The notes under the pieces were generated by a model. That model worked only from the letters and a program-made list of their open reading frames with translations, did not search any database and was not told the origin of the DNA. A DNA stretch of 64,000 bases from Sphingobacteriales bacterium (GTDB lineage: Bacteria > Bacteroidota > Bacteroidia > Cytophagales > 172606-1), in contig JANPIL010000141.1 in assembly GCA_031424975.1 (NCBI GenBank), positions 7,293 to 71,292 on the forward strand. The letters are read 5' to 3'. How positions within the stretch are numbered: the first letter of the stretch is position 1; every line of letters begins with the position of its first letter. The translations under genes and the position numbers were made by a program. Below are positions 5,669 through 50,210 of this stretch, piece by piece.

Positions 5669-8311
5669 TCATTCGTACATTTCCTTCAGTTTTCCGCTGG
5701 TTTCCTTGTCCCGGATATCCCGGAGCAATTCGGGCACGCCCTCCGACTCATCAAACATGGCCAGCGTCTGATAGGCATTCAATCGCACGTATTCATTTTT
5801 GGCGTTGCGCGCGGTATTTTCAAGGAAACCAATGCCTTTTTTCTGGATTTCGGCGGGCTGCCTGAGCAAATACGAACCGAACAATTGCGTAAATGGATAC
5901 AGGAAGTCAAGGCTGTTGCGTTTGGCTTTTTCCAAGAACCAATCCAACTGTTCGGTTCCGGCGGTTTCGGCGTAGTAGGCGGCAATGGTAAGCGTGATGT
6001 CGCTGCTGGCCGAGTTGCGGAAAGCCGCCAGTTGCCGTTCAGCATCAGCGGGTTGGGTGCTCAGATAGCCGAATAAGGCGATGGAAACCACGTAGTACGA
6101 CGAATCTTTCAACGCCTGCCGGAAAGCGGCTTGGTAATCCTTGTGTTTCCAGCCAATCATCTTGCTCACAGCCTCGGCACGTACGTACGATTTGGGGTCG
6201 GAAACGGCCATTTTTTCCACAACCGTCTCGTAATCAGACAGTTTTACCACCGGTATTTCGGGTAGGTTGCGTATGGCCATCTGCCGGATCACCCAAGAAG
6301 CATCGTGCAGGGCATCGGCGGCCAGCTTTTTTCTTGAAGGTGTGCCAAAATGTCCGGCGGCGGTTTGGGCATTTTCAGACATACTATTTTTGGCGGAGTC
6401 GGCGGGTGGCTTTTCACCGTTTTCATCAGCCACCACTTCAAACAGCTTGTTAAACGCTTCGTAACGAGCCAAGTACTTGTCCGAATGGTAGTATTGGTAA
6501 GTCAGTTCGGCCTCCGTTTTTTCGTGCGTCACCTTGCCGAGCAACTGGGTTTCGGCATCAAAAAGCACCAAATCGGGTTGGGTGGCCGTTGCAAATGCAA
6601 AGGTTTGGTCGGGTTGGTTGATTACAATATCGCGGACGGTTTTTGTGCCGCCCGCCCATATTTCCACTTGCAGCGGCAGGCGGCAGGTTTTGTCATCGCC
6701 GGATATACTATTTTGGGTCTGCACCCGCAATTGTACTTTTCCGTTGGCATAAGTGTGCGAGACTTTCAGTTCGGGATGGCCCGCCGACAGGAACCACTGG
6801 TCAAAAAACCACTGCAAGTCTTGGCCCGTCACCTCTTCAAAGGCCAGGCGCAAATCGTGGATTTCGGCCTTGTTGTACGCGTGTTTTTTCAGGTACGTGT
6901 TCAGCGACTTAAAAAACGCCTCATCGCCCACGTATTTGCGCAGCATGTGCAGCACGCAGCCGCCCTTCTGGTACGAATGCGCATCGAACATATCCTCCTT
7001 GTCGTTGTAGTAATAGCGAATCAGCGGCTCCTGCTTGGTTTGCGCCTCCGAAAAATACACTTCCTGATCCTGTTGCAGATGGTAGTCGGCTTCGGCGCGG
7101 CCCTGTTTGTGTTCAATCCACAAATACTCGGCGTAGGTGGCAAACGCCTCGTTGAGCGGCAGGTTAGACCATGATTCGCAGGTCACCAAATCGCCGAACC
7201 AATGGTGGAACATTTCGTGCGCAATCACATCGTCGTCGTTTTCATCGAGCAGTTGGTGGCGGTCTTTCTGCACCGATTCGCCAAACACCACCGCGCCGGT
7301 ATTTTCCATTGCGCCCGACACGTAATCGCGCACCACCACTTGGGCGTATTTGTCCCACGGGTACGGATAATCCAGAATTTTGGAGTAAAAGGACAGCATT
7401 TCGGGTGTCCGCCCAAAGATATTTTTGGCGTATTTCTCGTACGGTTTTTCAACCAAGTAGCTCAGTTCCATACCGTTCCACTTGTCGCGCACCACTGCAA
7501 ACTCGCCCACGGCCATCATGAACAAGTACGGCGCGTGCGGCTTGTCCTGCTTCCAATGGTCGGTGCGCGTGCCGTTGGCATTGGATTTGGACGAGATCAG
7601 CAACCCGTTGGAAAGCGTAGTGTATTGCTTGTCCACGGTGATGAAAATCTCCTGCGTGGTGCGTTCGTTGGGCGAGTCAATGGTGGGGAACCAGCACGAA
7701 GAAGCCTCGGTCTCGCCCTGCGTCCAGATTTGGCGCGGCTTGCCGGGTTCCCGGCCATCGGGATTGATGAAATACAGGCCCTTGTCTTCGGTAATGGCCG
7801 CACTGCCGCCTTTGGGCAGGTCGTTGGGCTTGGCCACATACCGTATTCGCACCGTGAATTTTTCGTGGCGGGTGTAGGGTTTGGGCAGTTTCAGGGATAC
7901 TATTTTCTGGTCGTACGTATAAGGCAACGTGGTTTTTTTGGCGGCGGCCACCAACTCAACCGACTGTATGTCAAACCCTTTGGCATTGAGTTGCAGCGAA
8001 TCCTGGGCGTAAAAATGCGGCTTCAGCGTCAGCGTTGCCGTGCCCAGCAGGTGCTGCCTGCCCCAATCAAAACTGACTTCCAGTTTGGTGTGCAGTAGGT
8101 CATGTTTGCGGGTGCGTTCGGGTTGGTAGGGCAGCGGCGCGGTGTCGGCCACAAGGGCAAGGGGCGGCGCGGCCAGCGTGTCGGTGGTGTTGCCGGGCAT
8201 TGCCACCGGCACGTTGGCCGTTGAAGTCTGCGCAATCTTGGGGCTTTTGCACGATTCCAGACTGCCCGCGAGCCACGCCAGACAAACAGCCAGCCATAGT
8301 TTTTTGCCCAT
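5669..8311 (-). CDS. M1 family aminopeptidase, lipoprotein, with HEAT-like C-terminus
   Basis: GAMEN and HEMFHHWFG..E motifs; lipobox-like LESC. Confidence 0.92.
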   Translation of the reverse strand: MGKKLWLAVCLAWLAGSLESCKSPKIAQTSTANVPVAMPGNTTDTLAAPPLALVADTAPLPYQPERTRKHDLLHTKLEVSFDWGRQHLLGTATLTLKPHFYAQDSLQLNAKGFDIQSVELVAAAKKTTLPYTYDQKIVSLKLPKPYTRHEKFTVRIRYVAKPNDLPKGGSAAITEDKGLYFINPDGREPGKPRQIWTQGETEASSCWFPTIDSPNERTTQEIFITVDKQYTTLSNGLLISSKSNANGTRTDHWKQDKPHAPYLFMMAVGEFAVVRDKWNGMELSYLVEKPYEKYAKNIFGRTPEMLSFYSKILDYPYPWDKYAQVVVRDYVSGAMENTGAVVFGESVQKDRHQLLDENDDDVIAHEMFHHWFGDLVTCESWSNLPLNEAFATYAEYLWIEHKQGRAEADYHLQQDQEVYFSEAQTKQEPLIRYYYNDKEDMFDAHSYQKGGCVLHMLRKYVGDEAFFKSLNTYLKKHAYNKAEIHDLRLAFEEVTGQDLQWFFDQWFLSAGHPELKVSHTYANGKVQLRVQTQNSISGDDKTCRLPLQVEIWAGGTKTVRDIVINQPDQTFAFATATQPDLVLFDAETQLLGKVTHEKTEAELTYQYYHSDKYLARYEAFNKLFEVVADENGEKPPADSAKNSMSENAQTAAGHFGTPSRKKLAADALHDASWVIRQMAIRNLPEIPVVKLSDYETVVEKMAVSDPKSYVRAEAVSKMIGWKHKDYQAAFRQALKDSSYYVVSIALFGYLSTQPADAERQLAAFRNSASSDITLTIAAYYAETAGTEQLDWFLEKAKRNSLDFLYPFTQLFGSYLLRQPAEIQKKGIGFLENTARNAKNEYVRLNAYQTLAMFDESEGVPELLRDIRDKETSGKLKEMYE
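6686..6714 (-). repeat. Motif A copy in aminopeptidase CDS (degenerate middle)
   Basis: GGTTTTGTCATCGCCGGATATACTATTTT; encodes QNSISGDDKT. Confidence 0.65.
7878..7906 (-). repeat. Motif A copy in aminopeptidase CDS
   Basis: GGTTTGGGCAGTTTCAGGGATACTATTTT; encodes KIVSLKLPKP. Confidence 0.85.
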
Positions 8312-8478
8312 TGGTTTTCTTTTGTTTACTTGGCGCAAAGAAACGGAAAAGTTGGGGGCGTTTCAAAACATTTTGCGTTTGGCGTTTTTCATTGTCCGCC
8401 ATTCCGCAAAGCCCCCGGACACGCCGGTTTATGTCCATGGCCCGAAGGCTGCGGAGAACATTTATTTTATCCAATGCC

Positions 8479-8976
8479 ATGCTCAAAATTACAGTTGCCG
8501 GACGGTATATTTTCAACTTGGATGAAAACGCCCACGCCGGCCATGATATTGCCGAAATCCGCGACGGAGTTTTCCATGTTTTGAAAGCTGGAAGTCCCGT
8601 CTTCAGCGGGAATACTGTTTCGTACAATGCCGAGGTGGTCAGGGCCGACTTTGCCCACAAGAGCTTCACCGTCAAGGTAAACGGCAAGTTGCTGGAAGTG
8701 AAAGCGCACGACAAGTTTGATTTGCTGCTGCAGCAACTCGGCTTGGGCCAAGCCAACGGCACGCAACCCAAAGACCTGAAAGCCCCCATGCCCGGCCTGA
8801 TTCTGGACATTAAAGTGACTGAAGGTCAAGCGGTGCTGAAAGGCGATGTGGTAGTCATACTGGAAGCTATGAAAATGGAAAACGCGATAAAAGCCCCCGC
8901 CGATGGCACTGTGAAGGCCGTGAAAGTGAAAACCGGCGACAATGTGGAGAAAAACCAAGTGCTGATTGTGTTTTAA
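8479..8976 (+). CDS. Biotin carboxyl carrier (biotin/lipoyl-domain) protein carrying an 8-codon repeat insertion
   Basis: KAPMPGLI and EAMKMEN biotinylation motif; insertion at 8588-8611. Confidence 0.9.
   Translation: MLKITVAGRYIFNLDENAHAGHDIAEIRDGVFHVLKAGSPVFSGNTVSYNAEVVRADFAHKSFTVKVNGKLLEVKAHDKFDLLLQQLGLGQANGTQPKDLKAPMPGLILDIKVTEGQAVLKGDVVVILEAMKMENAIKAPADGTVKAVKVKTGDNVEKNQVLIVF
8569..8621 (-). repeat. Degenerate Motif A copy in biotin-carrier CDS, split by a 24-bp insertion
   Basis: GTTTTCCATGTTTTGAAAG[8588-8611]ATACTGTTTC. Confidence 0.7.
8588..8611 (+). mobile_element. 24-bp hairpin insertion element, copy 2 (in frame within a CDS)
   Basis: CTGGAAGTCCCGTCTTCAGCGGGA; 20/24 identical to copy 1, same AAAG^ATAC junction. 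Confidence 0.8.
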
Positions 8977-8989
8977 AGGTCTCCAAAAG

Positions 8990-9023
8990 CCTCCCCTAAA
9001 TCCCCTCCGAAGGAGGGGACTTT
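8990..9023 (+). repeat. REP-like palindrome, family CCTCCCC..GAGGGG
   Basis: CCTCCCCTAAATCCCCTCCGAAGGAGGGGACTTT. Confidence 0.85.
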
Positions 9024-9054
9024 TAAAAGCCTCCCCTTGGGGCTGTTTTTTTCC

Positions 9055-9062
9055 TATCTTTG
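9055..9062 (+). promoter_or_regulatory. Bacteroidota -7 promoter element (pyrH)
   Basis: TATCTTTG matches TAnnTTTG, 28 bp before the GTG start. Confidence 0.65.
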
Positions 9063-9090
9063 CGCAAATTTCCAACAAATACATCTTACA

Positions 9091-9801
9091 GTGAAATACA
9101 AACGGATACTCCTCAAACTCAGTGGTGAATCGCTGGCCGGCAAACAAGGATACGGCATTGATTCCCAAAGGCTTACCGAATACGCAAAACAAATAAAGGA
9201 AGTCGTGGACGCGGGCGTGCAAGTGGCGATTGTGATTGGTGGCGGCAACATTTTCCGGGGTGCCGATGGCGAAAACTCGGGCATTGACCGCGTGCAAGGC
9301 GACTACATGGGAATGCTGGCAACGGTGATTAACGCCATGGCCTTGCAGAGCGGCCTGGAAAAAAGCGGCCTGTTCACCCGCCTCATGTCGGGCATCCGCA
9401 TTGACCAGGTGTGCGAGCCGTTCATCCGCCGCCGCGCCGTGCGCCACCTTGAAAAAGGCCGCACCGTGATTTTCGGGGCGGGCATCGGCAACCCGTATTT
9501 CACCACCGACACCACGGCCAGCCTGCGCGCCATCGAAATCGAGGCCGATGTGGTGCTCAAAGGCACCCGCGTGGACGGCGTGTACAGTGCCGACCCCGAA
9601 AAAGACCCCGATGCGGTGCGCTACGCCACCATCACGTTTGAGGAAGTATATGCCAAAGGGCTGAATATCATGGACATGACGGCCTTTACGCTGTGCAAGG
9701 AAAACAACCTGCCCATTATTATCTTCGACATGAACAAGCCCGGCAACCTGTATAACCTGGTGAAAGGCGAGGACGTGGGTACGCTGGTAACGATGGGTTG
9801 A
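9091..9801 (+). CDS. pyrH: Uridylate kinase
   Basis: [28 protein letters not shown]; GTG start 9091. Confidence 0.97.
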
Positions 9802-9874
9802 TTCTTGCGAGTCCACAGACCACGGTCGGCAGTCCACAGGTAAACCGTAGGAGCCGCCTAATTGACTGTTGGCG

Positions 9875-9903
9875 GGTTTGGGCTTTTTAAAGGATACTAT
9901 TTT
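9875..9903 (-). repeat. Motif A copy
   Basis: GGTTTGGGCTTTTTAAAGGATACTATTTT. Confidence 0.9.
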
Positions 9904-9976
9904 AGCCAACAGTTCACGTCCGACAGTCCACTGAAAAAAACAGATTGATACTGACAAACTACCGCCGCCGAGTTAG

Positions 9977-9997
9977 CCTGCCTGCCGGACAGGCAGG
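9977..9997 (+). repeat. Variant of the 20-bp palindrome
   Basis: CCTGCCTGCCGGACAGGCAGG. Confidence 0.7.
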
Positions 9998-10101
9998 GAA
10001 TCTCGGAACATGGGCGGCACGAGATGGGAATCTCGCGCCAGCGGGAACCGCCTGATTTTTCAATACCCACCACATTGGTGGTTTAAACGCAAAACAATCT
10101 T

Positions 10102-10662
10102 ATGGAGGAAATACAATTTTATCTGGACGAGGGCAGGGAAGACATGGAAAAATCCCTGAGGCACACGTCAAGCGAACTTGCCCGGATCAGGGCGGGGCGG
10201 GCCACGGTACACATGGTAGACGGGCTGATGGTTGAATACTACGGCTCGCCCACGCCACTGAGCCAGATGGCTTCGGTTACCGTGCCCGACTCGCGGACGC
10301 TGGCTATCAAGCCCTTTGAAAAGAAAATGGTGGGCGAAGTGGAAAAAGCCATTCGCAACAGCGACTTAGGCGTAATGCCCCAGAACGACGGCGAGACGGT
10401 GCGCATCAGCATTCCGCCGCTCAGCGAGGAACGCCGCCGCGAACTGGTGAAACGCGCCAAAAACGAGGTGGAAAGCGGCAAGGTCAGCATCCGCACTGTG
10501 CGCAAGGAAACCAACGAAGCCCTGCGCAAATTGCTGAAAGAAGGCGCATCGGAAGACGATGTGAAACGCGCCGAGGAGAAAGTACAAGCCCTGACCGACC
10601 AGTACATTGCCAAAGCCGATGAGATGGCGGGTAAGAAGGAAACTGAGATAATGACGATTTGA
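10102..10662 (+). CDS. frr: Ribosome recycling factor
   Basis: IRAGRA, IPPLSEERRRELVK. Confidence 0.97.
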   Translation: MEEIQFYLDEGREDMEKSLRHTSSELARIRAGRATVHMVDGLMVEYYGSPTPLSQMASVTVPDSRTLAIKPFEKKMVGEVEKAIRNSDLGVMPQNDGETVRISIPPLSEERRRELVKRAKNEVESGKVSIRTVRKETNEALRKLLKEGASEDDVKRAEEKVQALTDQYIAKADEMAGKKETEIMTI

Positions 10663-10712
10663 TTTTCCGGCAGTTATTCGCCATTTGAAACCCGGCTATG
10701 GCAAGATAGACG

Positions 10713-10741
10713 GGTTTCGTATTTTGAAAGGATACTATTCT
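10713..10741 (-). repeat. Motif A copy
   Basis: GGTTTCGTATTTTGAAAGGATACTATTCT. Confidence 0.85.
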
Positions 10742-10788
10742 TGCAGGAAGTACGCAGATTGCTTGGTTGGCACTTAATTGCCAATTAC

Positions 10789-10970
10789 GCACAACGGACA
10801 GGGCTTGGCGAAGTGTGGGAAATAGAATTCCGTCCGCCCGCGGCTATCTGAAACCAAATTTACAAATAGAAGCTAATTATTTGCACATGGCTAAATTAAT
10901 AACTTCCTGCTGGATATGAAGCCAAATTGAAAAACAAAAAGTTGAAACACAGCTTCCGTCAGTCCACCAA
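10789..10970 (-). other. Truncated attC-like site (array 1)
   Basis: Begins GCACAAC and shares GGGCTT..GTGTGG..AATAGAATT..GTC..GCCCG and CTTCCGTCA with the 11644 and 12520 sites; the second arm is missing; right limit approximate. Confidence 0.5.
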
Positions 10971-11121: not shown

Positions 11122-11307
11122 TTATACCTTTCGGTATAACGTACCAATGACAAGTAAAATAAAGCCAATTAGTAACATTTCATAGTTATACTTTGACAAT
11201 ACATCTATGTGCGTGTAATGTCCCAAAATGCCTAAAAAGCCGACGATGAGGGCAAGAACCCAGACTATTTGGTTGGGTGCACTGGGCATAAATTTTTTGT
11301 TTGCCAT
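11122..11307 (-). CDS. Small two-transmembrane membrane protein
   Basis: 61 aa with two hydrophobic segments; AT-rich. Confidence 0.6.
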   Translation of the reverse strand: MANKKFMPSAPNQIVWVLALIVGFLGILGHYTHIDVLSKYNYEMLLIGFILLVIGTLYRKV

Positions 11308-11511
11308 GGTTATTTGATTTAATTAAGGTTAAATTATTCTTTATATGAACCGTTTATTGAGTAACAATGACTCCCTTCAAAAGTAGGTCTATTTGAATTC
11401 TCAATCAAGGTAGATTTGTTCCAAACTTTGAGTTAACCAAATTTCTTCTATGGAGCTGCTATACACTGATAATCAACAGATTGTGTATTTTTCCAATAAA
11501 GCCGAACCCAG

Positions 11512-11540
11512 AAAACAGTATCTTTTCAAAACGCAAAATC
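11512..11540 (+). repeat. Motif A copy
   Basis: AAAACAGTATCTTTTCAAAACGCAAAATC. Confidence 0.75.
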
Positions 11541-11643
11541 CCTTTTTGTCAAAACAAACAGAGAACGTGCATTGCACGGATGAGAATGCAGTTTAAACAA
11601 GTTTTTAACTAACTGATTATCAACCGATAACAACTCTAAGGAC

Positions 11644-11839
11644 TGCTAACGCGCAGGGCTTTGCGCAGGTGTGGAATTAGAATTGCGTCTGCCCGGAACC
11701 GATGCCGGTTGAAAAAATAAAGTTAAAGTCAAGTGAAAAAATTCACTGATGTACGTCAAGCCCGAACAAAAGCTGAATAGAATTACAAATGCTCATTGTT
11801 ATTCCGTCTGCCCAACTTGCACAAAACCCCATGTTAGTG
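11644..11839 (-). other. attC-like recombination site (array 1)
   Basis: TGCTAAC...GTTAGTG ends; complementary arms GGGCTTTGCGCAGGTGTGG / CCCAACTTGCACAAAACCCC; stop codon overlap. Confidence 0.7.
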
Positions 11840-12493
11840 GCTGGCTCTGTGTTTTCGCATCGCATTATGTATGTCATTAATTAGTTTTTCAATTTTTGTC
11901 AATGAGTATTTACAAAATTCGCTGTCAATTTGTATGTTAAAATTTTCCTCGTCATATTCTGTTAATTCTATCGGACTATACTTTTGACAAATCTTTATTG
12001 TATCTATTGTCGATTTTGATAAGATTCCATCAGAATGCACAAATACATTCCGTATCTTATTAAAATCATTTACTTCTGTCCAAGTTTCAGACTCAAATGG
12101 CTCTATAATGTTACATACTTTTTTCAAATACAAGCTACTTCTAAATATTCCACTCCCACTAATATCTTTCAGAGTTAATTTATAAGAGTTTGATTTTTTT
12201 AAATTTTTACATATTTGGTCAAGTGAATTTTCAAGTAGAAAGTAGGTACTCAAAAATATTGATTTCCATAGTATCATAGGAAAAATTCCTTCATATTGAA
12301 TTTTCTTGCCAAATCTTTCGTCAATTACATCTTCATCAGTACTGCTTTCCATTGCAGTAATTTTTGTCTTTAAAAATACTTCTGTTTCACTTATTAAATC
12401 TTCATAATGTTTCAACTCATCATATACTCCGTGATTGAAGAAAAAATGATAAGTATAAGTGTCTTCTTCTTGTTTTTTTAAATCTTCGTCCAT
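11834..12493 (-). CDS. Hypothetical protein (cassette ORF, array 1)
   Basis: 219-aa AT-rich ORF; its TAA stop overlaps the end of the attC-like site. Confidence 0.75.
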   Translation of the reverse strand: MDEDLKKQEEDTYTYHFFFNHGVYDELKHYEDLISETEVFLKTKITAMESSTDEDVIDERFGKKIQYEGIFPMILWKSIFLSTYFLLENSLDQICKNLKKSNSYKLTLKDISGSGIFRSSLYLKKVCNIIEPFESETWTEVNDFNKIRNVFVHSDGILSKSTIDTIKICQKYSPIELTEYDEENFNIQIDSEFCKYSLTKIEKLINDIHNAMRKHRASH

Positions 12494-21356: not shown

Positions 21357-21568
21357 CGCCGGGTTTAAAAATGCTCCCAGCCATCCATTGGCCGCTAAAA
21401 ATAGCGGATAAAACGGAGCGAAAAACACGCACAAACGAAAAACCGCAAATGCCGCCACCCCGTTGCCGCAATGGCGGCGCACATTGGTTCCAAAGTGAGT
21501 GCATGCCGCTGAAAAATCCAATTTTTTCTTTAATTTTATCAATCCAAAATATGGTTTTTAAATCGCCC

Positions 21569-24277
21569 ATGAAAAAGACTTTTACCCTTTTGCCGCCCAC
21601 CGGGGTTTGGGCCTTCCTGCTGATACTATTTTCCGGCGGCTTTGCCGGGGCGCAGCACGCATTTCCCACCGGCTTTGCCGAAACCCGCATCACCGGCGGC
21701 CTCAACCCGACGGCCATGGCGTTTTCGCCGGATGGACGGCTTTTCATCTGCGACAAAAGCGGCAGGATACACATTGTGCGCAACGATGAGTTTCTTACCA
21801 CGCCATTTGTGGTGCTGCCCAACGTGGACGACTTCAATGAGCGGGGTTTGGGGGGCATTGCCTTCGACCCGGACTTTGCCAACAACGGCTATGTGTACCT
21901 GTATTACGCGGTCAAGGATGCGAACCACAACCGCATTGTGCGCCTTAAAGCCAGCGGCGATGCGGCGGTTCCCGGTTCGGAAGAGATTCTGGTGGAACTG
22001 GAACCCATGGCGGGCACCATCCACAACGGCGGCGCAATGGCGTTCGGCCCGGACGGCAAACTCTACGTTTCCATCGGCGATGGTGCCAACTCCGGCAGTG
22101 CGCAGTCCATGGACAGCAAATTGGGCAAGTTCCTGCGCATCAACGCCGACGGCTCCATCCCCACCGACAATCCGTTTTACAACTCCGCCACCGGCACCAA
22201 CCGCGCCATCTGGGCGTTGGGTTTCCGCAATTCGTTCACGTTTGCCATCCAGCCCGGCACCGGACGCATTTTTGCTAATGATGTGGGCGGCAGCTTGTCT
22301 GAGGAAATCAACGAGGTGGTGAAAGGCGGCAACTACGGCTGGAACCAGATAGAAGGCCCAAAACCCGCCAATACCGCCCCGCCCGCCAACTACCGCGACC
22401 CGGTGTATGCCTACGACCACGGCTTGGGCTGCTCGATTATCGGCGCGGCATTCTGCGATGCGGCCACCAATCGGTTTCCGGCCATTTACGCGGGCAAATA
22501 TTTCTTTGCGGATTATTGCAACGGCTACATCAAGGTGCTGAATCCGGCCAACGGACAGATTGAAAGCACGTTTGCGACGGGCATCAACCGCCCGGTGGAT
22601 TTTGAGTTTGCCAAGGATGGCTCGCTGTACTACCTCGAACGGGCGGGCATGGGCGGCGGCTCCATGCAAGACAACACCAGTACCAACAACGGCGCACTCT
22701 GGAAACTTACCTACACGGGCAGCGGCGCACCGGGCATGTCGCAGCAGCCCGCTTCCGTATTGGTTTCGGCGGGCGACAGCGCGGTGTTTTTTGTGGCGGC
22801 TTCGGGCAGCCGTCCGTTGACTTTTCAATGGCAGCGCGATGGCAACAACATTGCCGGAGCCACGCAAAGCAGCCATACTTTCAAAAATGCGGCACTGGCC
22901 GATAACAACGCCCAACTGCGCTGCGTGGTCACCAACGCCTTCGGCTCGGCTGCCAGCCACGCCGCCGCCCTGCAAGTAACCGCCGACAAACGGCCCGTGC
23001 CCACAATTACCACGCCGCTGGCCGGAGCCACCTACCGCGCTGGCGACACGCTGGCCTTTGCCGGAACCGTCCTTGACAACGAGGATGGAAACCTACCCGA
23101 CTCGGCGTACACGTGGTGGGTTGATTTCCACCACGACAGCCACGCGCACCCCGGACTTTCGCCTGTGAAAGGCATCCGGGCGGGGCAATTTGCGGTGCCG
23201 CGCTTCGGCGAGATTTCCGATAATGTCTGGTATCGGATTCATTTGCGAGCCATTGATAGCAAAGGACTCTCCCAAACGACTTTCACGGATGTGTATCCGC
23301 AAAAAACAACCCTGAAACTGGAAACTGAACCGGCGGGCATCGGCATCAACCTGGATGGCGAAATGCGTATTGCGCCCTACGAATTCAACAGCGTCAAAGG
23401 CATCACCCGAATTGTAGAGGCTCCGGTTTCGTATGCAAAAAACAATAACCTCTACGTATTCAAACAATGGAGTGGCGGCGCGGCTGGCCGTATCCTGACA
23501 TTTGCCACGCCCGATGTGCCAACCACCTACCGGGCTATTTTTGATGTGGTGCCGCTGGGCACAGGCAGCGGTCTGACGGGCAAGTATTACGACAATGGCC
23601 GACGCAACTTCACCGTACCGGTCACGGTGAAACGACTCGATGCCAATATTGACTTTACGTGGGGCAATAATTCGCCCGACCCGAAAATCAAACCCGACAA
23701 TTTCACCGCTTCGTGGAGCGGGCTGGTGCAGCCACTGTTTTCGGAAGAGTACACGTTTTACGCCACCGCCGACGATGGCGTGCGGCTTTGGGTGGACAAC
23801 AAACTGCTCGTGGACAAGTGGCAGTTGCAGGCGGCCACCGAATGGCAGGGCACGGTGACGCTTGAGGCGGGCAAAAAATACGAGTTGCGGCTGGACTACT
23901 TCGAGGAACTGTACGATGCGGTGGTAAAACTGGCATGGAGCAGCCGCCGCACGCCCAAACAAATCATTCCGGCCACGCAACTGTATCCGCTGGAGTTTGT
24001 GACCGCCACCGAACCACTTGTGGCAGCGGGCGGTTTCACGCTGTACCCGGTTCCCGCTGGTGATATTCTGAAAGTGAAAATAGTATCTTTGAAAACGGCC
24101 AAAGCCGACGTGTCGGTGTATAACACGCTGGGGCAGAAGCTATTGCAAACGCCGCAAAGCCTGAGAGCCGGTGAAAACACGTTTGAGATCAACACGCAAA
24201 ACCTCGCGCCGGGAATGTATCTCATAACCGTCAGCGGCCCAAGCGGCCCGCAAAGCAAGGCTTTCGTCAAGCGGTGA
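21569..24277 (+). CDS. PQQ-dependent sugar dehydrogenase-like beta-propeller plus Ig-like, PA14 and T9SS C-terminal domains
   Basis: ERGLGGIAFDPDF, HNGG..FGPDGKLY, ALGFRN; PA14 WSGLVQP..DDGVRLWVD; C-terminal LYPVPA..GMYLI. Confidence 0.85.
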   Translation: MKKTFTLLPPTGVWAFLLILFSGGFAGAQHAFPTGFAETRITGGLNPTAMAFSPDGRLFICDKSGRIHIVRNDEFLTTPFVVLPNVDDFNERGLGGIAFDPDFANNGYVYLYYAVKDANHNRIVRLKASGDAAVPGSEEILVELEPMAGTIHNGGAMAFGPDGKLYVSIGDGANSGSAQSMDSKLGKFLRINADGSIPTDNPFYNSATGTNRAIWALGFRNSFTFAIQPGTGRIFANDVGGSLSEEINEVVKGGNYGWNQIEGPKPANTAPPANYRDPVYAYDHGLGCSIIGAAFCDAATNRFPAIYAGKYFFADYCNGYIKVLNPANGQIESTFATGINRPVDFEFAKDGSLYYLERAGMGGGSMQDNTSTNNGALWKLTYTGSGAPGMSQQPASVLVSAGDSAVFFVAASGSRPLTFQWQRDGNNIAGATQSSHTFKNAALADNNAQLRCVVTNAFGSAASHAAALQVTADKRPVPTITTPLAGATYRAGDTLAFAGTVLDNEDGNLPDSAYTWWVDFHHDSHAHPGLSPVKGIRAGQFAVPRFGEISDNVWYRIHLRAIDSKGLSQTTFTDVYPQKTTLKLETEPAGIGINLDGEMRIAPYEFNSVKGITRIVEAPVSYAKNNNLYVFKQWSGGAAGRILTFATPDVPTTYRAIFDVVPLGTGSGLTGKYYDNGRRNFTVPVTVKRLDANIDFTWGNNSPDPKIKPDNFTASWSGLVQPLFSEEYTFYATADDGVRLWVDNKLLVDKWQLQAATEWQGTVTLEAGKKYELRLDYFEELYDAVVKLAWSSRRTPKQIIPATQLYPLEFVTATEPLVAAGGFTLYPVPAGDILKVKIVSLKTAKADVSVYNTLGQKLLQTPQSLRAGENTFEINTQNLAPGMYLITVSGPSGPQSKAFVKR
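21604..21632 (-). repeat. Motif A copy in a signal-peptide coding region
   Basis: GGTTTGGGCCTTCCTGCTGATACTATTTT; encodes GVWAFLLILFS. Confidence 0.8.
24077..24105 (+). repeat. Motif A copy in the T9SS C-terminal domain coding region
   Basis: AAAATAGTATCTTTGAAAACGGCCAAAGC; encodes KIVSLKTAKA. Confidence 0.85.
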
Positions 24278-30891: not shown

Positions 30892-31623
30892 ATGAATCTT
30901 TTCATCAACGACAAGCACGTGAAAGTCGTGAAAATGGAGGCCTTCACGGCGCAACAGTCCAAATTCAGCCGCATCATTGACGGGCAGACCGTGGAAGTGG
31001 CCGCCACCGACCTGGAGGGCGATGTGGCGGTGACCAACCCCTCGGTGGTGCTGCTCTATCGGTTGTTTGCCTTACTGCGCGACAAGAAACTGAGGAAACT
31101 CAGCTCGCTCACGCTGGCCTCGCCAGACAAGCAGATACTGACCGAGGCAATCAAGGCTCCGTACCGGATTATTGAGGCGGCAGGCGGCGTGGTACGCAAA
31201 GACAACCGAATACTGATGATTTACCGGCTGGGTGCTTGGGACTTGCCGAAAGGAAAAATGGAGAAGGACGAGACATTTCGCGAAACCGCCGTGCGCGAAG
31301 TGGAGGAAGAATGCCGCGTGAAGGTGCAACTGCACGAAAAAATCTGCACCACTTGGCACACCTACACCCAAAATGGCAGCGGAATCCTGAAGCAGACCAA
31401 ATGGTACGCCATGACCTGCCTCGACGACAGTGCCATGGCTCCGCAACGCGAAGAGGGCATTGAACGCGTGGAGTGGATCAGCGAGGAAAAAACCTTGGAA
31501 CTGACCGCCACTTCGTATCCTTCCATCCGGTTTGTGTGCCACAAGTATTTTAACAGGAAGCAGTCTGGCGACCCGGAAACGGGCTACGGGCTGGTTTCGG
31601 CTTTGAAAAAGATACTATTTTGA
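30892..31623 (+). CDS. NUDIX hydrolase
   Basis: PKGKMEKDETFRETAVREVEEE NUDIX box; the C-terminal tail reads through Motif A. Confidence 0.88.
   Translation: MNLFINDKHVKVVKMEAFTAQQSKFSRIIDGQTVEVAATDLEGDVAVTNPSVVLLYRLFALLRDKKLRKLSSLTLASPDKQILTEAIKAPYRIIEAAGGVVRKDNRILMIYRLGAWDLPKGKMEKDETFRETAVREVEEECRVKVQLHEKICTTWHTYTQNGSGILKQTKWYAMTCLDDSAMAPQREEGIERVEWISEEKTLELTATSYPSIRFVCHKYFNRKQSGDPETGYGLVSALKKILF
31593..31621 (-). repeat. Motif A copy encoding the NUDIX C-terminus
   Basis: GGTTTCGGCTTTGAAAAAGATACTATTTT; encodes LVSALKKILF*. Confidence 0.88.
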
Positions 31624-32828: not shown

Positions 32829-32866
32829 CAACCCTTGCAACAGCCGTGCTTTCCACAACCCTGTTG

Positions 32867-33906: not shown

Positions 33907-34779
33907 TCAGGCACTTTTGGGATTTTCCTTTTGAAAGCCACTCGGGCTTGTGCCGGTATGTCTTGTGAAAAAACGGCTGAAATATGATGCGTCTTCGAAG
34001 CCCAAGCGGTCGGCTATTTCTTTTATGCTGTGTTCGCTGTAGAACAGCAGCCGTTTGGCTTCCACAACTATCCGTCCATGGATAGTCTGGATGGCGGTTT
34101 CGCCGGTGGCGCTTCTCACCATTTCATTCAGGTGTTTCGCCGTAAGGAATAGTTTGTCGGCGTAAAATGACACATCATGGTTTTTGTTGTAGTGTTCTTC
34201 GATGAGCCAAACGAAGTCGAAAAATGTTTTCTTGTGCTGGCTTTCCGCCAACATTGATTTCTCCAGTTCCTTACGCCCGCTCCTTAAAACGCCCGCAAGC
34301 ATTATTTTCAATGCCGACCGTATGGTTTCAAAATCGGGCCGCTCAAGTTTCAATTCCCCGTTGATGATGCTAATGCAGGCAAAAAAATTATTTTCGTCCT
34401 GGCTGTCCAGCCGTATGTCAGGCATCTGGTTGCTCAGGAACGCGAACCGGATCAGGAAAGCCGCATCCGGCGTTTCCCTGTAGACAAACTCCTTTTCGAA
34501 GATGATGACAACTCCCCGCTCAATGTTTCCCCTGTCAAAATTGTGCACTTGTCCGGGACTGATACAGAAAAGCGTGGGTGCTGCAATCCGGTAATCCACA
34601 AAGTCAACCTGATGGGTACCCGTGCCCTTTTCAATGAACACCAACTCATAGAATGAATGCCTGTGATTTGAATATTCCTTGTGCACTTGGTTATAAACCT
34701 CGATACTCAATACCCTGAAAGGAATGGGTTTTTCCGCAGTCGGCTTTATCTGATGCGTAACTAGGTTTTTGTTGCCCAC
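33907..34779 (-). CDS. AraC family transcriptional regulator
   Basis: HRHSFYE..GQVH cupin and EIADRLGFEDASYFSRFF HTH; start uncertain (GTG 34779 chosen). Confidence 0.88.
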   Translation of the reverse strand: MGNKNLVTHQIKPTAEKPIPFRVLSIEVYNQVHKEYSNHRHSFYELVFIEKGTGTHQVDFVDYRIAAPTLFCISPGQVHNFDRGNIERGVVIIFEKEFVYRETPDAAFLIRFAFLSNQMPDIRLDSQDENNFFACISIINGELKLERPDFETIRSALKIMLAGVLRSGRKELEKSMLAESQHKKTFFDFVWLIEEHYNKNHDVSFYADKLFLTAKHLNEMVRSATGETAIQTIHGRIVVEAKRLLFYSEHSIKEIADRLGFEDASYFSRFFTRHTGTSPSGFQKENPKSA

Positions 34780-34813
34780 ATTTTTACAGGGTTTGTGAAC
34801 CCGGAATCGCGCG

Positions 34814-34842
34814 GGTTCGGCCTTTACGAAAGATACTATTTC
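34814..34842 (-). repeat. Motif A copy
   Basis: GGTTCGGCCTTTACGAAAGATACTATTTC. Confidence 0.85.
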
Positions 34843-34847
34843 CCCGC

Positions 34848-36518
34848 TTACACCGCGTATTTCCTGCGCCGCCAGTAGGTACGCGCCACGCCGAAAACCA
34901 CAATCACCGCCACGGGCAGCAGCAGGTTGGTGAGCTGCCATTGCAGGCGCTGGTCGCGGAGTTTCTGCTTGTCGAGTGGGCGCAGCACGATTTCCTTGCT
35001 GCGGGCGGCAATCACGCCGTTTTCGTCAATCAGGTAATCCACGGCGTGCAGCACGAAATCCTTGTTGGCAAATGTCACGTTCATGAACTTATCAAAGCCG
35101 AGCGGCGCAAACTTGCCCGTTTGCGGGTCTATCTCGTTGGCGGGCAGGTCGCCATCCGAACAAACCACGATTTTGGAAGGCTGCCCGTAATCCCTGAAAG
35201 TCTTGGCACGCGGGTCGGCGGCGGTGATGCGGTTGGCGTACAACGACCGGAAACTGCCTTCCAGCAGATAGGCCACCGGCTGCGAACCGGCATTGAACTG
35301 CTGCGGATCGGGGTCGCGGCGGGCTTCGTTGAAATCTATTTTGGCCGGGGCCGCCGTCACTTTCGAGTAGCGCGAAGTGAACATGAGCGGCGTTTTGCGG
35401 ATGCCATTGGCGCGCACGGTATCCATTGTACCCGCGTAATGCGCATACACCGCGTCGAGGTTGCGCACAATCGGGTGCTTGGAAAACGTGTTGATAAGCG
35501 GGTAAAACCGCCACGGCATGAGTTGTATTTGCGGCTGCTCGCCAAATTTGCCCACGTTCATCGGGATCTGCCCGCTGTTCATGTCTTGGATCACGTTGCG
35601 GTTCAGCCGCACGCCGTACCGGAACAGCAAATCGTCGAGGTTCAGGTCGTTTTCAATGGCCAGCGTGCTTTCGCCGCGCATGATTGTGTCCGATTTCAGC
35701 GCGTCCACGAAAAACAACGCCCGCCCACCGCTGACAATGAACTGGTCGAGCTTGTATTTGTCGGTCTCCGAGAATGCCGAATCGGGCTTGGCAACGATAA
35801 TCGCATCTAAGCCTTGCAGCGACTGTTGGGTGCGTAAGTTGAATGTGTAAACCTCGTAATACGCTTGCAGTGAATTGATCAGGTCGGCCATTTGCACGGG
35901 GCGCAGATTGCCGTAGCCTTGCAGAATGCCAATGCGTTTTTTCTCTTTCAACGTGAGCCGCCGGATGGCCGAAGCCAGTTCATATTCCACATTTTCAACC
36001 GACTGGTTCAGAATCTGTTCCGAACCCACGCCTTTGGTGCGCTGGTTGCCGCGCAGCAGCATCACCGGCACTTCGCGGCCTTCGTAGCTGACAATGGCTC
36101 CGGGCACCACAATCCGCTCCACGGTTTTGCCCTCTTCCTTATCCACCAAATTGGTCGGGTTAATTCCCTTTTTGGCGAGTTCAAAGAGTTTTTCGTTGAG
36201 TTTTTTCTTGTCAGGCTCGGCGGTCACGTCTTCAAAACGGTAGCGCACGTTGCCTCCGGCGTAGGCTTTGAATTCCTCCAGCTTTTCCTGCACCGCCGTT
36301 TGCAGCCGCCGGAACGCGGGCGGCAACTGGCCTTGCAAATACACGGTAACCAACACCGGCGCATCGAGTTTTTCGAGCAGCCGTTCGGTGGCTGGCGCAA
36401 TGGTATAACGCTGGTCTTCAGTCAGATCGGCGCGAAAAAAAAACCGGTTGGCCAGCACATTCAGCAGTACAACCGCCGCGATTCCGATGGCGAACTGGAG
36501 GAGGTTTTTTCTTTTCAT
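34848..36518 (-). CDS. gldG: Gliding-motility ABC transporter substrate-binding protein
   Basis: DLTEDQRYT, LDQFIVSGG, DLLFRYG, NKDF..VDYL. Confidence 0.9.
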   Translation of the reverse strand: MKRKNLLQFAIGIAAVVLLNVLANRFFFRADLTEDQRYTIAPATERLLEKLDAPVLVTVYLQGQLPPAFRRLQTAVQEKLEEFKAYAGGNVRYRFEDVTAEPDKKKLNEKLFELAKKGINPTNLVDKEEGKTVERIVVPGAIVSYEGREVPVMLLRGNQRTKGVGSEQILNQSVENVEYELASAIRRLTLKEKKRIGILQGYGNLRPVQMADLINSLQAYYEVYTFNLRTQQSLQGLDAIIVAKPDSAFSETDKYKLDQFIVSGGRALFFVDALKSDTIMRGESTLAIENDLNLDDLLFRYGVRLNRNVIQDMNSGQIPMNVGKFGEQPQIQLMPWRFYPLINTFSKHPIVRNLDAVYAHYAGTMDTVRANGIRKTPLMFTSRYSKVTAAPAKIDFNEARRDPDPQQFNAGSQPVAYLLEGSFRSLYANRITAADPRAKTFRDYGQPSKIVVCSDGDLPANEIDPQTGKFAPLGFDKFMNVTFANKDFVLHAVDYLIDENGVIAARSKEIVLRPLDKQKLRDQRLQWQLTNLLLPVAVIVVFGVARTYWRRRKYAV

Positions 36519-36545
36519 TGATTCAGGAATAAAAGGGCAATGTCA

Positions 36546-36574
36546 GGTTTGGGCTTTTGGAAAGATACTATTTT
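36546..36574 (-). repeat. Motif A copy
   Basis: GGTTTGGGCTTTTGGAAAGATACTATTTT. Confidence 0.92.
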
Positions 36575-36695
36575 GCAAAGGTGTAAGCGAAAATGCCCAC
36601 ACCGGGTGCGTGTTTCCTGTTTGTGTTGGAAAATGGGAAGTTTCAAAAATCAAAAACCTGCGGTTTTTTGCACAAGCTGAAGCGTGTGCTACCGC

Positions 36696-37160
36696 TTACC
36701 TCATCCGGTCGGCGGAGCGGACCAGTTTTTCATCGCGGCGGATGAAACGGTTGGCGAGGATGTTGAAAGTCAGGGCCGCCATGGGCAGGTAGGTTCCGAT
36801 TTTGAATACGCCCTCGTTGTTGGGGATAACCGTTTCGGCCTCGCGCGAAAAATAAATGATCAGGCCCAGCACACCCGCCATCACCAAGGCATTCATGGCT
36901 CCCAGACCCGTTTGTGCCGTGCGGTTTTTGTACTGCGACAAGGAATAAGCGGCTATTGCGGCGGCCACCAGTGCCAGTGCGGCAATGTACCACACGTTGC
37001 GGCTGCTCACCTCGGCTCCGGCCTGCACAACCGTCATCTTCATGGCCGACAGTTCCACACGTTTGCCATTTGCTGCTTCCTCCCAGTTTCCCACAAAAGC
37101 GGTGGTGGCCATGCAAGCCGCAATGAGCAGCAAAAATACGGATTGGATACGCTGAATCAT
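36696..37160 (-). CDS. DUF4293 family membrane protein
   Basis: MIQRIQSVFL..IRRDEKLVRSADRMR. Confidence 0.9.
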   Translation of the reverse strand: MIQRIQSVFLLLIAACMATTAFVGNWEEAANGKRVELSAMKMTVVQAGAEVSSRNVWYIAALALVAAAIAAYSLSQYKNRTAQTGLGAMNALVMAGVLGLIIYFSREAETVIPNNEGVFKIGTYLPMAALTFNILANRFIRRDEKLVRSADRMR

Positions 37161-37203
37161 GTTAGTTGGATAAATGGTTGGTTGTCAATTGCCTGTTGCG
37201 GCG

Positions 37204-37211
37204 CAAAGTTA
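37204..37211 (-). promoter_or_regulatory. Bacteroidota -7 promoter element (DUF4293 gene)
   Basis: TAACTTTG on the - strand. Confidence 0.6.
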
Positions 37212-37243
37212 AAGTTAAAATGAATCGGTTGTTGGCCTCCGGG

Positions 37244-37266
37244 GGTTTAGCGTTTTGAAAGGATAC
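37244..37266 (-). repeat. Motif A copy truncated at its core by a REP-like element
   Basis: GGTTTAGCGTTTTGAAAGGATAC followed directly by GGCCTCCCC.. Confidence 0.75.
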
Positions 37267-37321
37267 GGCCTCCCCCCTGTCTGCCGACAGGCAGGCAACC
37301 CCCTCCGAAAGAGGGGGCTTT
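37267..37321 (+). repeat. REP-like palindrome, interrupted by the 20-bp element
   Basis: GGCCTCCCC[20 bp]CAACCCCCTCCGAAAGAGGGGGCTTT. Confidence 0.8.
37276..37295 (+). mobile_element. 20-bp palindromic insertion element
   Basis: Identical CCTGTCTGCCGACAGGCAGG inside a REP-like element; uninterrupted comparator at 38583-38617. Confidence 0.8.
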
Positions 37322-39191
37322 AAAACTCCCCTCCCTTTTGGGCAGGGGCTGGAAATGGGGCTGTTGGGGGGCTGTTCATCTCAATCCCTATTTGCTGCAT
37401 CAGTTTGCTGGCGTTGAAGCTGCGGCACGGGCCGGGCTGCAGTTTGTAGTCAAAAAACAGCCGGTCGTCAATGACTTCACTGTTGAAACTGAAATTTTCC
37501 ACCGTATCGGGCAATTCGGCTGCCATTTCGCCGAGTGCCAAATCGTGCGTCGAAATCAGGCCGGAAGCATGGTGGCGGTGCAACTGCCGGATCAACGCCT
37601 TGGCTCCTTCGTGGCGGTCTTGCGAGTTGGTTCCCTTCAGGATTTCGTCGAGCAGGTAAAAAACCGGCTCACCCGATGGCAGCAGTTCCAGCAATTGTTT
37701 GAGCCGTTGGAGTTCAGCATAGAAAGAAGACACGCTTTCTTCCAGCGAATCCTGGGTGCGCATGGAGGTAAATACTTGAAAAACAGACAATTGCATTGCC
37801 GTGGCGCACACCGGCGCACCAGCCATCGCCAGCACCGCATTGATGCCGACCGTGCGCAGGAACGTACTTTTGCCCGACATATTGGAGCCGGTAACGATCA
37901 TGGTTTTGCCGCTGCCCGCCAACGAAAAGTCATTTACGACCCTTTTTCCGGCGATAATCAAAGGATGACCCAAGGTTTGGCCTTCCAAAAAGATACTATT
38001 TTCGGTAAGTTTGTGAAATGCGTATTCCGGGTTGGCATGGCGGAAACCGGCGAGGCTGTTGAGTGTTTCCATTTCGGCCAATGCGTCGAGCCAGCGTGGC
38101 AGGTCATGTTGGTTGGCAGCGTGCCAACGTTCCAAACGGATGGCCCAAAACAAACTCCAGAGCATGAGTGCATTGGCAAGCGGTCCGAAAAAAGCATTTC
38201 CCGCCGAGAGCAGATTGCCCGAAATGCCCGCCAGCCGCTCAATTTTTGCGGATGCTTTCTGATTGTCGGCCAACAAAGCGGCTTTCAACCGCACAAGTTT
38301 TTCCGATTGGAACGGGTGGTTTTCCATCCCAACCAGCAAATCGGCGTATTGGCGCAGCGATTTGGCCATTTCATACGCCTGGTCGGTAAGCCGTTTGATG
38401 TGTTTGCCCGCCAAACCCACCAAGCCCAAATTAAGGAAGCCCAACACCAGTGGCACATGGTACGTGACTGATTCTGTGGCATTTGACAGGAAAATGGCCA
38501 GCAGCATTACAAAAGGCAAAACGCGCGAGGCCAGCACCAATAGCCTGCCAAATGCCCCACCCGCCCCCGAAGGAGGAGCAAAAAAGCCCCCTCTTTCGGA
38601 GGGGGTTGGGGGAGGCCTCTCCCCTTTCGGAGTCTGGGGGGCGGCGTGCCTTCCGGTGGCTTGGAACTGCTGCCGCCATTCAAGGTTTCCGCCCAATTCC
38701 GATACGGCGGCTTGGCGTTCAAGGATTTCCTTTTTGGCGGCTTGGTTTTGGAGCCAACCGGCCAGAAAATCGCTGCCGATAGCGGTTTGCGTGCGGTTTA
38801 GCAACACAAACAATGAATGCAGCCCGAAGATGTCCAAATCGCCGGTGTACGGATGTTGCGGGTTCTGGTAGTGCTGCCCGGTATTTTCAGGTTTGAATTT
38901 GCCTTGCAGGCGCAGGATTTCCTCGTGGTTGATCTGGCTCAAAAACCGGAACTGGTCGCGCCGGTAACCGATGCGGTTGTGCCACTGCATCATCGCAAAA
39001 AATAGTATCAAAAAAAAGAGCGCAACCCCCGTGGCAAGCCCGGCGTTTTCGGTGCTGCGGTAGGCCAGCCACGCACCGCCAATGCCCGCCAAAAACACGG
39101 CCAGCCTCAGCCACGACACGCTGCCGAACTTCTGCTGCCACTTGGCGGCCTCATCATTGAAGTGTTGCTTGCGCTGATGGTAAATTTCCAT
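37320..39191 (-). CDS. MutS domain V (MutS-related) membrane-anchored ATPase
   Basis: N-terminal transmembrane segments, TGSNMSGKSTFLR Walker A, SSFYAEL, LDEILKGTNS, STHDL; contains a repeat-derived insertion. Confidence 0.9.
   Translation of the reverse strand: MEIYHQRKQHFNDEAAKWQQKFGSVSWLRLAVFLAGIGGAWLAYRSTENAGLATGVALFFLILFFAMMQWHNRIGYRRDQFRFLSQINHEEILRLQGKFKPENTGQHYQNPQHPYTGDLDIFGLHSLFVLLNRTQTAIGSDFLAGWLQNQAAKKEILERQAAVSELGGNLEWRQQFQATGRHAAPQTPKGERPPPTPSERGGFFAPPSGAGGAFGRLLVLASRVLPFVMLLAIFLSNATESVTYHVPLVLGFLNLGLVGLAGKHIKRLTDQAYEMAKSLRQYADLLVGMENHPFQSEKLVRLKAALLADNQKASAKIERLAGISGNLLSAGNAFFGPLANALMLWSLFWAIRLERWHAANQHDLPRWLDALAEMETLNSLAGFRHANPEYAFHKLTENSIFLEGQTLGHPLIIAGKRVVNDFSLAGSGKTMIVTGSNMSGKSTFLRTVGINAVLAMAGAPVCATAMQLSVFQVFTSMRTQDSLEESVSSFYAELQRLKQLLELLPSGEPVFYLLDEILKGTNSQDRHEGAKALIRQLHRHHASGLISTHDLALGEMAAELPDTVENFSFNSEVIDDRLFFDYKLQPGPCRSFNASKLMQQIGIEMNSPPTAPFPAPAQKGGEF
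37974..38002 (-). repeat. Motif A copy in MutS-domain CDS
   Basis: GGTTTGGCCTTCCAAAAAGATACTATTTT; encodes ENSIFLEGQT. Confidence 0.85.
38583..38617 (-). repeat. REP-like palindrome inside the MutS-domain CDS
   Basis: Reverse complement GGCCTCCCCCAACCCCCTCCGAAAGAGGGGGCTTT. Confidence 0.85.
38999..39027 (+). repeat. Motif A copy in MutS-domain CDS (transmembrane segment)
   Basis: AAAATAGTATCAAAAAAAAGAGCGCAACC; encodes VALFFLILFF. Confidence 0.7.
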
Positions 39192-50208: not shown

Positions 50209-50210
50209 AA

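Follow-up and report, generated by a model that had tools for sequence, protein, structure and literature searches.

How does a single 30-bp word come to be written into the coding sequence of several genes, in several reading frames, and what keeps it there? The question is raised by a 64,000-nucleotide stretch (hereafter the window) from a Sphingobacteriales bacterium (GTDB lineage Bacteria; Bacteroidota; Bacteroidia; Cytophagales; 172606-1; assembly GCA_031424975.1, contig JANPIL010000141.1, positions 7,293 to 71,292), in which the word, here called Motif A, recurs between genes as well as inside them. A first-pass annotation of the window had proposed that the genic copies accumulated gradually by substitution and were not inserted as a mobile repeat. 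Alignment with orthologues bears this out for the copies in genes, which arose by point substitution at tolerant, already similar, poorly conserved positions. In these copies the DNA itself is conserved at the informative bases, synonymous positions included, even though they call for the rarest Ile and Val codons, and the middle of the motif follows coding needs. As to the force behind the accumulation, we lean tentatively towards a molecular drive of the uptake or recombination type.

A bipartite 30-bp word

Motif A can be written as [A/G][A/G]AA[T/C]AGTAT[C/G]-N13-AAACC. Its consensus, AAAATAGTATC-YYYnnAAAAssCC-AAACCC, was built from all 1,642 flanked exact-core copies of the genome under study (G000; relatives are labelled G001 to G009) and has sharp edges and uninformative flanks. 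Across the 30 bp, an 11-bp core is followed by a weakly constrained 13-bp middle, made up of a Y-run and an A-tract, and then by AAACC(C). In the window, 22 exact copies of the 11-mer core AAAATAGTATC are present, and 38 matches are found when up to one mismatch is allowed, against 0.92 expected from dinucleotide-preserving shuffles (shuffle maximum 3). The whole 4.6-Mb genome holds 1,660 exact cores and, with tolerated variants included, 2,735 full bipartite copies, or about one per 1.7 kb.

Variation among the copies is confined to particular positions. Core positions 1, 2, 5 and 11 each accept one specific alternative (323, 90, 175 and 464 copies, respectively), the commonest one-off variants being C>G at position 11 and A>G at position 1. 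Substitutions at positions 4, 6, 8 and 9 are represented by merely 0 to 7 copies each, compared with 1,374 perfect-core copies with AAACC, and the G>C change that gives ATACTAT is rare (15 of 1,374). The earlier description of ends that are kept while the middle bends was therefore apt, since the core and AAACC are near-invariant and the 13-bp middle is low in information and evolves at a neutral rate. A search for subfamily structure by mutual information among 1,479 copies, which comprise 1,108 distinct 30-mers, found none; mutual information was seen only between adjacent bases, at the boundary of the T-run and the C-run. The consensus has no hairpin, its fold of -0.6 kcal/mol being the same as that of shuffles. 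The centres of the three conserved blocks lie about 10 bp apart and therefore face one side of the helix. Together with the intervening A-tract, this phasing suggests a protein that would contact one face of bent DNA, much as is the case for the core and phased A/T tracts of the uptake signal sequence (USS).

Substitution as the origin of the genic copies

Orthologues of the host genes were drawn from the motif-free genomes G002 and G005, from the motif-bearing G004 and from more distant family members; 1.2 Mb was fetched from G002, G004 and G005, and synteny-based fetching from G005 added few orthologues. A site was counted as gapless when no gap fell within +/-5 residues of it. Against the two motif-free Xanthocytophaga genomes, 13 of 17 coding sites were gapless, and the other four, with gaps of 5, 7, 9 and 13 residues, fall in indel-rich linkers. 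Against G004, 31 of 41 sites were gapless and the rest had gaps of 1 to 5 residues. A clean insertion of about 10 codons was found in none of the 58 orthologue comparisons. The motif windows are less conserved than their background (46% versus 72% identity) and more often gapped (24% versus 8%, P=0.008), and the positions that host them are tolerant ones: linkers, signal peptides, membrane helices and tails. Orthologous DNA of the motif-free genomes agrees with the motif at 6.8 of 13 informative positions; the sites were thus pre-adapted in part, without encoding the motif.

The comparison of G000 with G003, which are 92.6% identical over 230 kb, covered about 150 sites, of which 115 are shared. 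Site differences between the two genomes are substitutions or small messy indels, and clean presence or absence of the 30 bp was seen at none of the approximately 150 sites. One apparent in-place inversion between G000 and G003 proved to be an alignment artefact of flanking palindromes.

The encoded peptides shifted along with the DNA. At the aligned sites, [KE]IVS occurs 7 times in G000 and [EQK]NSI 10 times, with no occurrence of either in the motif-free orthologues, which thus do not encode the motif peptides. Across the proteome, 101 of 128 [KE]IVS and 152 of 187 [EQK]NSI peptides are encoded by the Motif A core. The first-pass annotation had also proposed ILF and KDT[I/V] for an enrichment test; neither was measurably enriched, ILF and DTI being common peptides that were unshifted. 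The motif core draws on ATA and GTA, although these are the least used codons for Ile and Val in the genome.

Constraint on the informative bases is visible even where the protein is indifferent. G000 and G004 share 65-70% protein identity, and their synonymous sites are saturated. At third-codon positions the two agree in 80% of cases (96 of 120) where the base is informative, compared with 55% within the motif middle and 42% in the codons on either side; the same contrast is absent against motif-free genomes (38% versus 30%). Thirteen of 30 gapless G000 sites retain all 13 informative bases in G004, with the middle differing freely. In spacers (48 sites, ascertained in G000 only), G000 and G003 differ at 3.3% of core bases and 4.0% of AAACC bases; divergence rises to 10.6% for the middle and to about 11% for the flanks.

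In the window, all eight peptides cited in the first-pass annotation were reproduced, in genes with Pfam and orthologue support and in four reading frames. The host genes and their Motif A copies are as follows.

5669..8311, minus strand: M1-family aminopeptidase gene with three copies (Pfam Peptidase_M1, E=5e-53; orthologues in 12 of 15 relatives)
7877..7906, minus strand: copy encoding KIVSLKLPKP in the M1 peptidase, same strand, frame 0; codon alignment gapless
6685..6714, minus strand: weak copy encoding QNSISGDDKT (core AAAATAGTATA) in the M1 peptidase, frame 1
6361..6390, minus strand: copy encoding KNSMSENAQTA (core AAAATAGTATG) in a linker of the M1 peptidase, frame 1; missed in the first-pass annotation
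8479..8976, plus strand: biotin carboxyl carrier protein gene (accB) with a split copy (Pfam Biotin_lipoyl, E=6e-19; orthologues found)
8566..8622, minus strand: degenerate copy (VFHVLK..TVS) in an antisense frame of accB, a plus-strand gene, split by a 24-bp hairpin at 8588-8611
21551..24277, plus strand: gene for a GSDH/PA14 protein sorted by the type IX secretion system (T9SS), with two copies (Pfam GSDH, PA14, Por_Secre_tail)
21603..21632, minus strand: copy (GVWAFLLILFS) lying antisense in the signal peptide of the GSDH/PA14/T9SS protein
24077..24106, plus strand: copy encoding KIVSLKTAKA in sense frame 0, in the T9SS C-terminal sorting domain
30892..31623, plus strand: NUDIX hydrolase gene with one copy (Pfam NUDIX; orthologues found)
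31592..31621, minus strand: copy (LVSALKKILF*) lying antisense, covering the last 10 residues of the NUDIX gene
37320..39251, minus strand: gene for a MutS domain III/V protein with two copies (Pfam MutS_V, MutS_III; orthologues found)
37973..38002, minus strand: copy encoding ENSIFLEGQT in sense frame 1 of the MutS-like gene
38999..39028, plus strand: copy (VALFFLILFF) lying antisense in the N-terminal hydrophobic helix of the MutS-like gene
9874..9903: perfect copy, intergenic, inside a spurious 496-aa open reading frame (8467-9957, minus strand)

The last of these, absent from the list in the first-pass annotation, is intergenic because the 496-aa frame is spurious, the real genes at this place being accB and pyrH on the plus strand.

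The clearest history is that of the copy at 7877-7906, where a stepwise series by substitution runs from AAGATCATAGGAATAAAGTTGGCAAAGCCG in G005 through AAAATAcTAggaATAAAAttGCCAAAACCC in G004 to the full motif in G000. The codons at this site read CAG AAG ATC ATA GGA ATA AAG TTG GCA AAG CCG in G005 and AAA ATA cTA gga ATA AAA ttG CCA AAA CCC in G004. At the weak copy (6685-6714) no orthologue from the genus shows a gap, 8 of the 10 residues are replaced, and G003 has AAAACAGTATC at that place. The copy at 6361-6390 lies in an indel-rich linker; it is gapless across the motif against G004, and a gap of 5-9 residues separates it from G005 and G002. Both copies in the MutS-like gene align well. 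That at 37973-38002 is gapless against G004, G006, G007 and G009, a 4-residue length difference belonging to G002 and G005 and not to G000, and that at 38999-39028 is gapless in all genus orthologues, with the core GATACTATTTT at the orthologous codons in G004 but not in G002 or G005.

The remaining sites carry length changes or lack a full set of orthologues. AccB orthologues align gaplessly save for the hairpin, an in-frame insert of 8 residues. At 21603-21632 the sole spanning orthologue (G001) aligns with a 1-residue gap in the variable signal peptide. No orthologue spanning 24077-24106 was found; residues 891-959 of this protein match positions 1-67 of the Por_Secre_tail model, and because the model fits there, a 10-residue insert has no room. 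In G000 and G003 the NUDIX protein has a C-terminal tail, encoded by the Motif A copy, that exceeds the tail of G004, G005 and G002 by 12 residues, and the stop codon (TGA) of the gene stands directly after the copy (31592-31623).

Genome-wide, 429 copies lie wholly within called genes of G000. Five frames are used freely: 81 copies are in sense frame 0 (KIVSxxxxKP) and 176 in sense frame 1 (xNSIxxxxQT), and the antisense frames hold 16, 73 (xVxxxxxILF) and 80 (GLxxxxDTIL). The sixth, the sense frame that contains TAG, is used by the AAAACAG variant alone (3 copies), since this variant avoids the in-frame TAG. Copies are about 18-fold rarer in called genes (0.12 per kb) than elsewhere (2.2 per kb), as would be expected if purifying selection at the protein level opposes the process. 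Genes were called with a home-made caller that covers 77% of the genome, and the non-called part includes some real genes; the 16% genic share is therefore a lower bound. On another contig of G000 (C407), a LysM-repeat protein gene (11133-12034) carries one copy per inter-domain linker (ENSIPGKPQTP, ENSISPKPQTL and KNSIPANGQTT), and three further copies lie in its 3' spacer, making six co-oriented copies in 0.9 kb. Copy clusters were considered as pointers to a gene for the reader of the motif; the sole large cluster is this LysM-repeat protein, and the idea was dropped.

Placement, turnover and clade distribution

Motif A occupies all types of spacer to a similar extent (38% of convergent, 34% of tandem and 36% of divergent spacers), with density per kb highest in convergent ones. 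Both orientations are used, and distances to gene starts and stops are broad and without a peak. Copies are less clustered than under random placement, whether judged by the coefficient of variation (1.11 versus 1.31) or by the fraction of gaps shorter than 200 bp (12% versus 23.5%). Those less than 400 bp apart are mostly direct, with 324 direct, 109 convergent and 57 divergent pairs against an expected 245, 122 and 122. Neighbouring copies point the same way 57% of the time, with repeated flips along the window. A polar chromosomal motif, such as Chi or KOPS, was rejected on account of these flips and of the balance between strands in G000 (the bipartite pattern matches 932 times on the forward and 960 times on the reverse strand); replichores are undefinable in this fragmented metagenome-assembled genome (MAG). 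In 13% of copies the 3' half (..CCAAACC) pairs with a complement no more than 30 nt downstream, as in the last copy of the C407 cluster, and the resulting stem is terminator-like, with Motif A as its left arm.

Copy number also depends on base composition. When the genome is divided into 4-kb bins, those under 42% GC contain 0.10 copies per kb, a 6-fold depletion relative to the 0.5-0.6 found elsewhere. Positions 44000-60000 of the window have 39-43% GC in a genome of 53% GC, and no full copy of Motif A was found there. Among 100 syntenic spacers of G000 and G004, the motif is common to both in 22, against 19 expected, which is nearly independent occupancy; spacer copies therefore turn over and are not descended from one ancient burst. 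This indicates a continuing birth and death of copies.

The bipartite pattern is restricted to a single genus. It was found in only four of 401 sampled Cytophagales genomes, with 1,892 copies in G000, 1,836 in G003, 2,571 in G004 and 143 in G001. G002 and G005, which are Xanthocytophaga of the same genus, have at most 6 copies, and the remaining 395 genomes have 0-3. In G002 and G005 the few core matches come without the AAACC half; they are chance occurrences in motif-free genomes, in which no over-represented 11-mer was found that might serve as an alternative dialect word. The closest named relative is Xanthocytophaga flavus (G005), and the nearest genomes are uncultured MAGs. GC content in the genus ranges from 38% (G002) to 53% (G000). 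G004, at 44% GC, shares the core and the spacing with G000 and has AAAACC, not CCAAACC, as its 3' block, a difference that appears dialect-like. G001, which is 72% complete, has the same motif with about 13-fold fewer copies than its relatives, and is possibly an intermediate state that is gaining or losing the motif. Exact bipartite matches are also frequent in the metagenome records JAESGM01 (contigs up to 1.1 Mb), Ga0105045 and ERZ10661xx (contigs L226-L305), so further members of the clade are present in environmental data. Viral contigs of IMG/VR gave a single chance match.

A second repeat is nested within Motif A. A 21-bp perfect hairpin, CCTGCCTG-CCGGA-CAGGCAGG (-8.9 kcal/mol), and related variants of 17-21 bp are inserted at exactly two points of the motif, after ..ATAG and after ..GTATC. 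Hairpin-split copies number 83 in G000, one in 297 kb of G003 and none in 560 kb of G004, and several inserts present in G000 are absent at the same site in G003. At 3153-3205 and 8588-8611 of the window, a different, 24-bp hairpin stands at the junction after ..GTATC. Matches to Y1 (HUH) transposases were found in G000 (7), G003 (5) and G001 (3), with none in G004. The hairpin looks like a separate, mostly G000-specific element that targets Motif A and resembles repetitive extragenic palindromes (REPs) with their associated tyrosine transposases (RAYTs).

Candidate forces behind the accumulation

Four known systems provide points of comparison. One is the USS of Pasteurellaceae, which in Haemophilus influenzae consists of a core (AAGTGCGGT) and two helically phased A/T tracts over about 29 bp. 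Like the USS, Motif A is present in thousands of copies on both strands, is clade-specific with dialect-like variation among related species, and combines a strong core with phased A/T-rich segments over about 30 bp. In genes, the USS originates by substitution, favours residues of low conservation and raises the frequency of particular peptides; the low identity and frequent gaps of the Motif A windows match the pattern reported for USS and DUS (PMC2817400). Unlike the USS, Motif A has an unrelated and more information-rich sequence, belongs to the phylum Bacteroidota, is 16% genic instead of 65%, and occurs in two motif-rich genomes (G000 and G004) with no gene for a pilus or pseudopilus ATPase. 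The DNA uptake sequence (DUS) of Neisseriaceae, a 12-mer (AT-GCCGTCTGAA) with dialects that is bound by the minor pilin ComP, is likewise strongly intergenic (34.5% genic in N. meningitidis), and the terminator-like stems of Motif A are a further likeness. The DUS is only 10-12 bp long and often occurs in inverted pairs, whereas close pairs of Motif A are mostly direct, and no ComP-type pilus system is evident in the Motif A genomes. The highly iterated palindrome HIP1 (GCGATCGC) and its alternates in cyanobacteria are, like Motif A, hyper-abundant in genes and spacers alike and spread by substitution, with deviations biased to outer positions (PMC4390886). HIP1 is, however, a short palindrome tied to orphan methyltransferases, and the 30 bp of Motif A form an asymmetric, bipartite word. 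REPs and the bacterial interspersed mosaic elements built from them, with their RAYT (Y1 HUH) transposases, are also abundant, short and mostly intergenic, and the REP-like 21-bp hairpin family coexists with Motif A in G000. Unlike these elements, Motif A has no palindrome, subfamilies or insertion polymorphism, and is abundant in G004, which is free of Y1 genes. A literature search returned, within the library that it covered, no report of the Motif A core in a relevant context and none of uptake sequences in Bacteroidota.

The reading we favour, held as possible rather than probable and based largely on analogy with these systems, is that the word serves its clade as a recognition signal in double-stranded DNA and is under molecular drive of the USS/DUS kind. 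Point substitutions created the genic copies at tolerant, near-matching positions, and a sequence-specific process would then favour alleles that match the word. The likeliest such process would be one in which DNA from relatives is taken up or recombined by preference when it bears the motif, with the preference mediated by a putative DNA-binding protein, and purifying selection on proteins would oppose accumulation in genes. A drive of this type agrees with an origin by substitution, with the shifted peptides and the bias towards variable residues, with the dialect-like 3' block of G004, and with the depletion in atypical low-GC DNA and the reduced clustering.

Several observations weigh against such a drive or qualify it. 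No competence gene set tracking the motif was found. ComEC (PF03772) is present in 10 of 13 family genomes, motif-bearing and motif-free alike, and the ATPase of type II secretion and type IV pilus systems (PF00437) is absent from G000 and the complete G004 and present in G003 and the motif-free G002. The motif-bearing genomes are all uncultured MAGs, and the link to uptake is drawn by analogy. The genic share of 16% is below the 34-65% of USS and DUS, and no known uptake signal is as long or as rich in information as this 30-bp word, in which about 13-16 bases are fixed. About a quarter of the coding sites lie in indel-prone segments, where a small insertion is possible, and for the NUDIX copy the choice between substitution and indel is ambiguous. 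For the spacer copies, about 84% of the total, substitution is shown only indirectly, through the lack of clean 30-bp presence/absence between G000 and G003. Finally, identical footprints would be expected if selection acted directly on a chromosomal binding site.

That last possibility is an unlikely explanation, though one to be taken seriously. Motif A would then be the site of an abundant clade-specific chromosomal protein, for instance one that structures the nucleoid or bends DNA, kept by natural selection and without a role in uptake. The blocks about 10 bp apart with an A-tract between them suggest binding to one face together with bending; the site is orientation-independent, with about one copy in 35-38% of spacers of every type, its clustering is below that of random placement, and its informative bases are strongly and position-specifically conserved. 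G000 and G004 have no pilus ATPase. A function that needs some 2,700 sites would nevertheless be unusual if it were dispensable in close relatives, and the sister species G002 and G005 are wholly without the motif, with G001 about 13-fold poorer. Moreover, orthologous spacers of G000 and G004 are occupied almost independently, so individual sites are not under site-specific selection. We regard as improbable a sequence-biased repair or methylation-linked conversion that, as in models for HIP1, turns near-matches into matches through mutation bias. It would account for accumulation by substitution in genes and spacers alike, and the one-off variants at outer core positions and at one internal T/C position recall the edge-biased deviations of HIP1 (PMC4390886), the T/C flips at core position 5 recurring between G000 and G003. 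The motif is nonetheless unlike the palindromes of methyltransferases in form, Vsr genes (PF03852) occur in relatives with and without the motif, and no link to a methyltransferase emerged, though genes of that kind were not surveyed; nothing specific speaks for this explanation.

A miniature mobile repeat, akin to miniature inverted-repeat transposable elements or REPs and inserted genome-wide, sometimes in frame in genes, has its attractions: thousands of copies with sharp 30-bp edges, 84% of them outside genes, Y1 transposase genes in G000, G003 and G001, a minority of coding sites that coincide with indels of 5-13 residues, and the status of Motif A as a hotspot for small hairpin insertions. 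These are outweighed, and the explanation made highly improbable, by the alignments (76% of coding sites gapless and none with a clean 10-codon insert), by the lack of any clean 30-bp polymorphism between G000 and G003, and by conservation that is position-specific and not a uniform decay. For the genic copies it is excluded, because there are no subfamilies, no hairpin, no clean polymorphism and no transposase link; nor was a target-duplication signal found in the flanks of Motif A. Dependence on RAYT or IS200-605 transposases was rejected because G004, the genome richest in copies, gave no Y1_Tnp match; among transposase families, the survey covered Y1 alone. Least credible of all, to the point of being nearly negligible, is a signal in gene expression, be it a promoter, a terminator, an untranslated-region element or a small RNA. 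The core does contain TATCTTT, which resembles the Bacteroidota -7 box TAnnTTTG, and the stems formed by 13% of copies are terminator-like. Promoters and terminators are, however, excluded by the statistics of spacer type and distance, and neither a conserved -33 box nor an orientation rule was seen; the motif has no intrinsic fold, copies also lie within genes on both strands, and an Rfam search of the window gave no match.

To our knowledge, the well-documented cases of a word that saturates a genome by substitution, overriding codon choice, are few (USS, DUS and HIP1). Motif A is a clean, information-rich case of such a word in an uncultured Cytophagales clade, and the presence of motif-free sister species and an approximately 13-fold poorer relative within one genus makes the force behind it testable. 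It also explains the recurrent odd peptides (xNSIxxxxQT, KIVSxxxxKP and GVWxxxxILF) in linkers, signal peptides and tails. For metagenomic binning it is a sharp clade marker, and its absence marks foreign or slowly evolving regions. We know of no dependence on classical type IV pili in transformable Bacteroidota such as Riemerella and Porphyromonas. Motif A may be a signal of self-recognition, in uptake or recombination, read by a putative sequence-specific receptor without a type IV pilus; we consider this doubtful, but if true, it would be the first such signal described in Bacteroidota.

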